From: Vairimorpha necatrix
Lineage: Eukaryota
NCBI GenBank assembly: GCA_036630325.1
Contig: CP142727.1
Span: forward strand, 992,001-1,056,000
Length of the DNA: 64,000 nucleotides
Direction: 5' to 3'
Made by a program: the position numbers and the translations under genes. Below are positions 58,026-61,000 of the stretch, one piece after another. Position 1 is the stretch's first letter; each line of letters begins with the position of its first letter. The notes beneath the pieces are model-generated. The model searched no databases, was not told the origin of the DNA, and saw only the letters and a program-made list of their open reading frames with translations.

Positions 58026-61000
58026 TGTAGGGTTTAGAACCCTTAATAAATAAATGGTTAACATGGCGAACACAAGGATGAACAGGGAAACAAGAGAGTC
58101 CCGTAGTCAAGAGGCTAGAACATTAGAGAAAGAGGCAATTAGGATAGATAAGAGACTAAAGTTAATATTGAAAGTTGAGTGGAAAGATGTTATGGATTTG
58201 GCATCTGCGAACTTGCAGGATTATATTTTTGAAAATTTTTGTGACGGAAGGAGCAGTTGGGAGGAAATTTATAAAGGCTTACAAAAAGGAGCAGAATTTG
58301 AGAGAGAGTCAGAAGAAAGACAAGAAATGATTAAAGAGATTATGGATAAAGTGTTGAAAGAGTTTAGGGAAGAAAGAAAAGAAAATCTTAGGATGTATAG
58401 GAAAAGAAGAGAAATCAGAGAAACTACAAAATGTTTTATATGTAAGAAAGAAGGGCATTACGCTAGAGAATGTCATGAAAGTGTAGCTGGTAGGGAAAAA
58501 TATAAAATTAAAAAGGAACAAGTTTTACAGAAAGAACCAATTATCAACAATGAAGGGAAAAGATGTAAAACAGTAAATAAGTTAGAAAATTTAATTGAAA
58601 AGTATCCGGAAGTTTTTAAAGAATCAGAAGAAAAGATAAAATATCTCACAGGAGAGAAGTGTCCAATAAATACTAAGCAAGGTGAAAAGGTTGTGAAAAG
58701 AGGGCAGAATGTGCCATACTACCTTAGGGTGAAATTTGAGGAGTACTTGAATAAGTTGGAAAATTAAGGGGTTATAAGACGTTCCAAAAGTGAGTGGAGG
58801 AGTCCAATAAGAGCACTTGAAAAACCAAATGGGGACGTAAGATTGGTAAGCAATTTGATGGCGTTAAACGATTTGGTTGACAAGGACCCGTACTCACTAC
58901 CGTTAATTAAGGATATTATGAGAGCCACACAGGGGTCAAAAGTATTTACGGTTATCGACTTAAAAGAAGGGTTTTATCATATTGAGATTGAGGAGCACCA
59001 TAAGCACAAAACAGCATTTGAAGTGAATGGTCGAGTATACGAATGGAATAGTATGGTTATGGGGTTTAAGAATTCGCCTCATATAATGCAGAGAGTAATG
59101 AACAGAGTTTTAGATGAATTCAGAGGTAAAGGCGTGGAAGTATATATGGATGATATAGTTATTCATGGTAAAGACGTAAGAGTGCATGACGAGTTACTAG
59201 AGAGGGTAATTAAAAAGTTTAAAGAGTGTGGGTTGAGAATAAACCAAACAAAGATACAATACAAAAAAGATGAGGTGATGTTGCTGGGAGTAACAATTAA
59301 TGGGGAGGTCATGGGACCGAATGAGATTAAAAAGCAGGAGACATTGGAATATAGAAAACCTGAGAATGTTAGAGAGTTAAGAAGATTTTTAGGACTAACT
59401 GGTTGGTTTAGAGACTTTATTCCCAACTATGCGTATAGAACAGTAAGGCTTACTGAGGCTTTAAAGAAAGATGTTAAGTGGAATTGGACGGAGGATATGG
59501 AAAGAGCTTTTGAGGATATGAAGCAAGGCTTGAGAGATATGAAAAAGTTGAAGATTCCGGACGGAAAAAAGCTATTTAGAGTAAGAACTGATGCGTGTGA
59601 TACGGGGATCGGAGCAATTCTATTACAAGAAAATAAAGAGGGTGAGTGGATTCCGATACAATGGGCATCGAAAATGTTGACTCCTACCGAGCGAAGATAT
59701 ACGATAAGTGAGAAGGAGATGTTGGCGGTGTTTTTTGGAATAAAGAAGTTTGAAAGTGATTTGAGAGGAAGGAAATTTCATTTGATGACGGATCATAAAG
59801 CATTAGCAGAGATCAGAAATAAGCCATACTTCAATAATAACAGAATAAACAGATGGGTAGAACAGATACAAGAGTTTGACTTTACAATAGAGTATGTGAA
59901 AGGGGAGTTGATGACAGATGCAGATGCGTTAAGTAGGCAGTATGATCAGGTAGAAGTTTCGGATGAACAAAAAGAAAAGGACAACAAGAGAAAAGAAGTG
60001 ATCGAAAAACAAATTTTGGGAAAAAAGCAGAAACATATTAAAGAAAAGGACGGTAAACAGTATTGGGAATTTTCCACAGGTGAAATGAAATAGATATTGA
60101 GCCTAGATAGTAGAGAACATGAAATAACAAGAGTACATGAGGAGTTAAACCATAGAGGTGTCAAAGGCACTAATTATAACATTAAACAAAGATGGTATTG
60201 GCCTGGTATGAAAAATCATATTAATAAGGTAATTAAGAATTGTGAAATATGTGGGATTAACAATAGGAAAAACACAGGAGGATGTGATTTCGTAGTAACT
60301 AGAAAGAAATTGGAGAAAGTGGCGTTGGATTTAATGGACATAGGTGGAGAGAATAGGTATGTGTTACTGGGTATTGATTACTTTACTAGAAGGTTGTGGG
60401 GTTCGAATTTGAGATGTAAAGAGAGTAGTGAAGTTATAGAGGTATTACAAAAGTGGATAAGGGAAGATGGATTTCCAGAGGAATATGTGACAGACAACGG
60501 AAAAGAGTTTGTAAGTAATAGATTTAAAGAATGGTGTAGTATTAATGATATTAAACATAGGAAAGTGGGCTTAGAAGCTCATGGGAGTAATGGTAGAATC
60601 GAGAGATGCATCAGAACTATAAGAGAGACATTGATAAAGCAAAATGATGGGAATATTTCTGAAAAGATAGAAAGAGCAATCAAAGGATATAATAATACAC
60701 TATATACAGCAATAAAATGTACGCCGATGGAAGCGTGGAGAGATCAAACGGCTGAAGTTATAATTGAAAATGATGAAAATGGAAAATATGCTGGTCGGTT
60801 CAAGAGAAGACACAGAGAGACATTTACAGTAGGCCAAGAGGTAAGAATCGCTAGGAGAGAAAATTTAGGTACACGTGCGAAAACAGACAAGGGAAGATTC
60901 GCGGGTCGCGGAAGGATCGTAGCTATAAGTGAAAATGATTCATATATTGTGAGACTACTGGATGGTAAAATTGTTAAAAAGAGGCATTATGATTTGAAAG

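Follow-up and report, generated by a model that had tools for sequence, protein, structure and literature searches.

We analysed a 64,000-nucleotide (nt) stretch of the genome of Vairimorpha necatrix (GenBank assembly GCA_036630325.1, contig CP142727.1, positions 992,001 to 1,056,000 of the forward strand), hereafter called the window, in which all positions are counted from the first base. The window is a nest of dead retroelements amid intronless host-like open reading frames (ORFs), and one of these retroelements, at 58026–61091 on the plus strand, is a complete and ultra-compact Ty3/gypsy-type long terminal repeat (LTR) retrotransposon of 3,066 bp. An earlier note, made from the bare sequence of the window, had assigned its 5′ third (58054–58850) to a Gypsy lineage without protease, with a tiny Gag fused in frame to the reverse transcriptase (RT), a description that our analysis confirms. 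The element is bounded by a 38-nt 5′ LTR (58026–58063, TGTAGGG...TTAACA) and a 38-nt 3′ LTR (61054–61091), which are perfect copies of a direct repeat with TG...CA ends (TGTAGGGTTTAGAACCCTTAATAAATAAATGGTTAACA; 100% identical, 3028 nt apart). At up to 3 mismatches, this repeat has only these 2 matches in the window, with 0 expected by chance. A target-site duplication, GTAAA, lies on the left (58021–58025), and direct reading finds the identical five bases 3′ of the 3′ LTR (61092–61096). We also compared, over positions 57700–61400, contigs from four public sequencing runs (X1–X4, which are not all independent, since X1 or X2 may be the source of the window itself). Contigs from X1 and X3 depart into differing flanks at 58023, just left of 58026, which confirms the left boundary and shows that the element occupies other insertion sites.

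A single plus-strand frame runs from an ATG inside the 5′ LTR (58054) to a TAG stop inside the 3′ LTR (61063–61065), so that the element contains nearly no non-coding DNA. Read through with an X at two internal stops, this frame (58054–61065) yields a polyprotein of 1003 amino acids (aa), P0001, in which Pfam recognised, in this order, zf-CCHC, RVT_1, RT_RNaseH_2/RT_RNaseH, Integrase_H2C2 and rve. The RT proper (58819–59298; RVT_1, aa 256–415, E 4.1e-31) is preceded by a pre-RT segment (58591–58764; aa 180–237, with LIEKYPEVF at 180–188 and EKCPINT further on) that forms its N-terminal part. It is followed by an RNase H-like region (59485–59877; RT_RNaseH_2, aa 478–576, E 1.1e-27; RT_RNaseH, aa 505–608, E 2.8e-30) and by an integrase with an H2C2 zinc-binding domain and a DDE core (60112–60561; Integrase_H2C2, aa 687–738, E 4e-13; rve, aa 763–836, E 2.9e-10). 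The TG...CA LTRs, the 5-bp duplication (4–6 bp class), a polypurine tract and the Pol order RT–RNase H–integrase are all characteristic of Ty3/gypsy elements, and the more distant homologues of the element are ordinary Gypsy polyproteins. The aspartic protease expected between Gag and RT is absent. Membership of the DIRS/Ngaro group could be ruled out by the DDE integrase (rve) with its H2C2 domain and by the lack of any recombinase family in the Pfam results, and membership of the non-autonomous TRIM, LARD or SMART classes by the full set of encoded RT, RNase H and integrase.

The polyprotein begins with a helical, Gag-like domain of 126 aa (58054–58431), in agreement with the approximately 125 aa that the earlier note had counted before the zinc knuckle. 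An AlphaFold2 model of aa 1–237, based on an alignment of 30 sequences (mean pLDDT 78.8), predicts helices at aa 14–37, 43–49, 52–62 and 69–124, mostly with pLDDT >90 and, past aa 126, the knuckle, a helix at 141–158, a low-confidence stretch and a helix at 222–236. The nucleocapsid-like CCHC knuckle (58432–58473; aa 127–140, C127-x2-C130-x4-H135-x4-C140) was found by Pfam at aa 126–140 (zf-CCHC, E 3.4e-4, 21.0 bits against a cut-off of 20.8), and its four ligands, C127, C130, H135 and C140, are invariant in the 30 sequences. A sequence search of PDB retrieved nucleocapsid knuckles only, including that of HIV-1 (E 9e-4) and, by its knuckle portion alone, Ty3 Gag (6r22, E 0.17). The N-terminal domain itself matched no Pfam family, including any gag or capsid family, and Foldseek with its model returned 0 matches at E ≤1e-3 in PDB and BFVD. 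The wide VIA-align search found generic helical bundles at best (Z 6.7), below the level at which this tool is meaningful for helical models. Structure prediction gave a helical model and no matching capsid fold. The claim of an unusually reduced capsid holds as to size, with a median of 132 aa before the knuckle across the lineage, and its identification as a capsid has no fold match behind it. A complex prediction with two copies of aa 1–160 (score 0.00, with the alignment unused and the fold uncertain) speaks neither for nor against self-association.

A polar linker (58474–58590, aa 141–179) occupies the usual place of the retropepsin. It measures 39 aa in the window copy, so that the gap between the knuckle and LIEKYPEVF is short, as had been noticed, although shorter than the ~45 aa first given. 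Across 30 members of the lineage, the linker has a median length of 55.5 aa (range 32–179; <90 aa in 25 of 30) and consists to 50–75% of K, R, E, D, N, S or Q, with no conservation of its sequence. Conversely, the segment from L180 to W248 is constant in length in these members (67–70 aa), with C203, I205, T207 and G217 invariant. With such short linkers and a constant pre-RT segment, there is no room for a protease. A retropepsin is a beta-rich domain of ~100 aa that bears a catalytic D[ST]G. The predicted structure agrees with its absence, since the model contains no beta strands from the knuckle to the RT and only helices and disorder at aa 141–237.

Motif and profile searches gave the same result. 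The protein of the window copy has no D[ST]G anywhere upstream of the RT, extending the earlier observation that none lies between knuckle and RT. Such strings occur in 2 of the 43 lineage proteins with a recognisable RT anchor, as chance occurrences in low-complexity linker, and the motif D[ST]G[AS] is present in 26 of the 30 distant matches examined. Pfam at E ≤1 found no retropepsin family in P0001, nor was any among the 25 families shown for 30 members, which are those matched by most members. One candidate, Peptidase_A17, was weak and restricted to 4 of the 30 members; it falls in the RNase H region (aa ~496–615), below the cut-off in the two members where it was located, and was rejected. 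We then searched the whole proteins with a protease hidden Markov model (HMM) built from 24 protease-bearing distant matches, which recovered 3 of 3 held-out proteases (E 3e-16 to 7e-19). P0001 scored −0.6 bits, the best of the 52 lineage proteins reached 6.4 bits, and nothing exceeded 3 bits inside 58026–61091 when the six frames of the window were searched. The retropepsin is absent from the element and across its clade.

This absence extends to all close relatives of the element. A search of 5.8 billion proteins retrieved 51 relatives with 37–73% identity, most of them intact ORFs of 985–1050 aa, the named ones coming from Nosema granulosis, Vairimorpha necatrix and Nematocida minor, with V. 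apis lower in the list. Precomputed Pfam annotation shows no retropepsin in these 51 and makes it common from P0053 down, at ≤29% identity. Likewise, none of the 52 lineage proteins was positive with the protease HMM, compared with 35 of the 47 more distant matches, 24 of these 35 being the very sequences on which the HMM was trained. In a FastTree phylogeny of the core from RT to integrase (aligned to a core HMM with hmmalign; 77 rows of ≥850 aa, 22 of the 99 proteins being shorter and left out), the 36 lineage rows form one clade with a Shimodaira–Hasegawa-like (SH-like) support of 99, all without protease, and the neighbouring rows are mostly protease-bearing. The N-terminal 237 aa, searched against 1.84 billion representatives, gave 81 matches, mostly fragments, and 0 of the 80 proteins that were new had a protease (best HMM score 4.5 bits). 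Together, the sequence comparisons strongly support the view, already advanced in the earlier note, that the loss of the protease is a trait of the lineage. The clade is apparently restricted to microsporidia. A scan of metagenome contigs with the alignment of the relatives retrieved, among at least 80 loci, only distant Gypsies of 21–35% identity, with no lineage DNA among the matches listed, and a scan of viral contigs found no relative. Two contigs carrying lineage members, L081 and L082, sit in bacterial bins (Clostridium and a Turicibacter metagenome-assembled genome), a placement that almost certainly reflects eukaryotic contamination.

The window itself holds a second, degraded member of the lineage on the plus strand (40335–43446; 3,112 bp, ~50% aa identity by tblastn). 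Its layout, a CCHC knuckle, a charged linker of ~65 aa and the pre-RT motif, again without protease, is the one that had been described for it, and its frame is broken. Its terminal direct repeats measure 48 nt and are 96% identical, and its flanks (CATAA and CTATA) show no matching target-site duplication. The coding strands of both copies (intervals 40001–44000 and 58001–62000) are purine-rich, with a GC skew of 0.29–0.46 and an AT skew of 0.10–0.25, and both copies are higher in GC than the surrounding DNA (25–30% GC).

The copy at 58026–61091 is itself dead, as indicated by two premature in-frame stops that are private to it. The first, a TAA at 58765–58767, is a sense codon in X1, X2 and X4 and an amino acid residue in all 29 aligned relatives. 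The second, a TAG at 60091–60093, is a sense codon in the contigs of X1–X4. The frame joining Gag to RT is real, although in this copy the TAA, which the earlier note had overlooked, parts the knuckle from the RT. The other copies also carry a 9-nt in-frame insertion behind 58169, a tandem duplication of adjacent bases that the window copy lacks, and the run contigs differ from the window at about ten further positions. The family is not dead, as near-identical copies with open frames exist at other insertion sites.

The compaction of the element extends to its cis-acting sequences. The 5′ LTR contains AACCCTTAATAAATAAATGG, in which both an AATAAA and the ATG that opens the ORF are found. In microsporidian genes, a CCC-like motif is often present just 5′ of the start codon and AATAAA near the stop codon. 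By analogy, one single 38-nt LTR unit might supply start context, stop codon and poly(A) signal. A putative primer-binding site, TGGCGAACACAAGG (58064–58077), directly follows the 5′ LTR and begins with TGG; it lies within the coding sequence (codons M-A-N-T-R), and the proteins of the relatives begin with MANTR or MANTK over this same site. The contig L082 reads ...ATCACA and then TGGCAACACC at the junction between LTR and putative primer-binding site. ARAGORN predicted 0 tRNA genes in the window. At the opposite end, a polypurine tract, GGAGGGGGGA (61044–61053), abuts the 3′ LTR and is, like the putative primer-binding site, inside the coding sequence; its conservation extends to L081 and the second window copy. 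A conserved 3′ element, GAGACTACCCGTCTGG (61030–61053), runs into this tract and is likewise found in L081. This relative, with 66% aa identity, reads GAGACTACCCGTCTGGAGGAGGGGA, then a homologous 38-nt TGTTGGG...CTAACA and then unrelated AT-rich DNA. In the window, the 16-mer GAGACTAMCCGTCTRG is confined to the 3′ ends of the two lineage copies, with 0 occurrences expected by chance. It forms a small GAGAC/GTCT inverted repeat leading into the polypurine tract (61030–61053 and 43379–43398 in the window; 2704–2728 in L081), and its DNA is conserved among members of only 50–66% aa identity, where the protein sequence of the ORF is not. GAGACTAMCCGTCTRG probably acts in cis as a signal, either in the priming of the plus strand or in packaging. 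Fifteen contigs with intact ORFs of relatives (987–1031 aa) are only 25–100 nt longer than the ORF.

We consider it likely that the element is a dead copy from a protease-less microsporidian Ty3/gypsy clade whose members encode one polyprotein between LTRs of ~38–48 nt and replicate without retropepsin maturation. In the polyprotein of this clade, a helical Gag-like domain, one CCHC knuckle and a short disordered linker precede the RT, RNase H and integrase. Since everything is made from one ORF and no protease is encoded, each Gag-like module is produced 1:1 with, and tethered to, the RT, RNase H and integrase. In the mechanism that we favour, the polyprotein most likely stays uncleaved or has its disordered linker trimmed by a host protease. 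The N-terminal helices and the knuckle would bind and chaperone the RNA as a ribonucleoprotein, and the tethered RT–RNase H–integrase would perform reverse transcription and integration, with no closed, matured capsid being formed. Judged by the predicted structure and the alignment, the linker, which is hypervariable and disordered, resembles a tether or a zone of non-specific cleavage rather than a set of conserved protease sites. This lack of conserved cleavage sites, together with the necessarily 1:1 ratio of Gag to Pol, argues for a function independent of protease.

More tentatively, and with some doubt on our part, the clade may be fully autonomous without protease or capsid maturation, its elements of ~3.0–3.15 kb with LTRs of ~40 nt expressing an uncleaved polyprotein that acts on its own RNA, in a ribonucleoprotein lifestyle similar to that of long interspersed nuclear elements (LINEs) but assembled from Ty3/gypsy parts. 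These would then be the smallest autonomous LTR retrotransposons known.

Several points weigh against replication free of a protease and of a capsid. Remnants of protease-bearing Gypsy elements occur in the same window, so that a protease could act in trans. The fold of the N-terminal domain was matched to nothing specific, which leaves the statement that it is not a capsid unproven; the language-model comparison of ESM Atlas even places it near Retrotrans_gag and Ty3_capsid clusters at 0.84–0.86, under the 0.9 level, a weak similarity that serves as a lead only. The contrast between lineage and distant proteins in the HMM search includes the training sequences mentioned above. Finally, the tree, inferred with FastTree only and midpoint rooted with long outgroup branches, shows clustering and cannot alone separate loss from gain.

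The main competing explanation, which we regard as unlikely, is that the lineage is a semi-autonomous parasite that encodes its own RT, RNase H and integrase and has its polyprotein cut by the retropepsin of a co-resident Gypsy element. Ty3 and retroviruses need their own protease, which speaks for such borrowing, as do the protease-bearing Gypsy remnants in the window. Degraded Gypsy remains of other families lie at 4973–9404 (minus strand), 19073–20725 (minus strand) and 25247–28336 (plus strand), with 25–40% identity to the element and broken frames. The earlier note had credited two of these neighbours with a protease. One of them does hold a retropepsin remnant, with LIDSGA at 20629 (minus-strand piece 20725–20534; protease HMM E 1.8e-7, and E 0.14 for Pfam gag-asp_proteas over its 64 aa). 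The IFDTG of the other, at 25799, is in the right place for a protease and has no statistical support (7.2 bits, E 0.37). A microsporidian Gypsy with protease also exists in Dictyocoela (P0073). However, both neighbours are themselves degraded, the Gag-like part of the element is unrelated in sequence to the protease-bearing elements seen in the window, and the linker has no conserved site at which a foreign enzyme would cut. Moreover, retropepsins normally work within co-assembled particles. The intact ORFs of the clade come from distant microsporidian genera, so that each host would have to satisfy the dependence, and borrowing loses plausibility because co-assembly with unrelated Gags would be needed in all of them.

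It is very unlikely that the lineage, having lost the protease, has become immobile, its ORFs being decaying remains or domesticated host genes. Both window copies are broken, which speaks for this explanation, but the dozens of distinct intact ORFs of ~1000 aa with 38–73% identity, the intact LTRs, target duplication and polypurine tract, the near-identical copies that other runs show with open frames at different insertion sites and the 3′ cis sequence conserved across members of 50–66% identity all speak against it.

The presence of a hidden activity that parts Gag from Pol, either a very divergent retropepsin, a protease of another class or a 2A-like skipping peptide, appears highly improbable and is already largely refuted. 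Nothing positive points to it; the nearest hints are the linkers of 110–179 aa in three members (P0011, P0021 and P0045) and the VDTG of P0011, a protein that the protease HMM, with its working controls, does not list even at E 100. The same HMM finds no protease in any other member and its six-frame search is clean, Pfam finds none upstream of the RT, the model shows helices and disorder, and 25 of 30 linkers fall below 90 aa. The 2A-like motif NPGP occurs in 0 of the 52 lineage proteins. The single NPGP of the window (21938) was rejected as a skipping site, since it follows stop codons and matches a DNA string resembling a tRNA T-arm, with no Rfam tRNA match. That this copy alone lost its protease through a one-off deletion is already refuted, with a negligible probability: the second window copy shows the same layout, and so do 30 of 30 aligned full-length relatives and all 52 close matches.

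Among known elements, Tf1 of Schizosaccharomyces pombe and Ty3 of Saccharomyces cerevisiae resemble this one in domain order (Gag–RT–RNase H–integrase), in their CCHC nucleocapsid and in the 5 bp that are duplicated at the target, and Tf1, too, has only one ORF. Both carry and need a retropepsin; their capsid has two domains and ~200 aa, their LTRs span a few hundred bp and their total length is ~5 kb, whereas the element described here has no protease and only 126 aa ahead of the knuckle, with LTRs of 38 nt in a total of 3.07 kb. DIRS, Ngaro and Penelope-like elements and LINEs naturally lack a protease and replicate without proteolytic maturation. Where the present element has a DDE integrase, they use a tyrosine recombinase or an endonuclease, and they have no such LTRs, in contrast with the Ty3/gypsy RT, RNase H and integrase, the TG...CA LTRs and the polypurine tract found here. 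In LINE ORF1 proteins, a coiled coil is joined to a module that binds nucleic acids, which is a CCHC knuckle in some clades; the long predicted helix of 56 residues (aa 69–124) and the CCHC of the element resemble this arrangement, and no homology was found.

Microsporidia-specific Ty3/gypsy clades with gag and pol merged in one polyprotein have been reported by Parisot et al. (2014, PMC4202319), and groups with a single polyprotein also by PMC13174016, which cites that study. According to the text of Williams et al. (2008, PMC2474625), nearly all Nosema bombycis elements (Nbr; Xu et al. 2006) encode Gag, protease, RT, RNase H and integrase. As far as these texts describe them, those groups are likewise single-polyprotein microsporidian Ty3/gypsy elements, with the difference that the Nbr elements mostly have a protease and ours has none. 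The main text of PMC4202319 does not once use the word 'protease'; its figure 1A or supplements may contain lengths, LTRs and domain maps. Our full-text literature search retrieved no protease-less Ty3/gypsy lineage and no coding element with LTRs this short; figures, supplements and Xu et al. (2006) were outside its scope, so that a prior description is possible. The reported smallest LTR retrotransposon, SMART/FRetro129, is a non-coding element of 292 bp with 85-bp LTRs that the text of Gao et al. (2012, PMC3281118) terms 'very short', most reported LTR retrotransposons being >4 kb according to the same source. From what is stated there, FRetro129 resembles our element in its very short LTRs, its TGT...ACA ends and its 5-bp duplication, whereas ours is coding, with 3.07 kb and 38-nt LTRs.

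The proteolytic maturation of Gag-Pol is usually held to be defining and essential for LTR retrotransposons and retroviruses. If our interpretation is correct, a long-lived and species-rich clade with intact ORFs shows that Ty3/gypsy replication can run protease-free, and a natural minimal system (3.07 kb, one ORF) would be available for probing the contributions of capsid and protease. In addition to the loss of the protease, the element combines a length of 3.07 kb with 38-nt LTRs, which also bears on how short an LTR, with its U3, R and U5 regions, can be and on how far microsporidian genome compaction reaches into mobile elements. Common LTR finders have a default minimum LTR length of ~100 nt. 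LTRs of 38–48 nt fall below this minimum, so that such elements are likely annotated only as stray 'Pol polyprotein' genes, like the named database entries. For their own search, Gao et al. (2012, PMC3281118) needed to reduce the minimum to 50 bp.

Two other features of the window accompany the retroelements. A 506-aa open frame on the plus strand (21917–23437) contains an integrase-like part ~25% identical to aa 673–893 of the element, with no RT adjoining. At 21925–21950, just upstream of that part, the tRNA T-arm-like string is followed by a minus-strand run of T, and ARAGORN and Rfam call no tRNA there. Just upstream of the element, at 57824–57968, the contigs of X1 sum to a depth of ~59,000, compared with 60–1,200 over the element, and loose ends occur at 57893, 57948, 57957 and 57968; this short repeat, present in very many copies, has no relation to the element.

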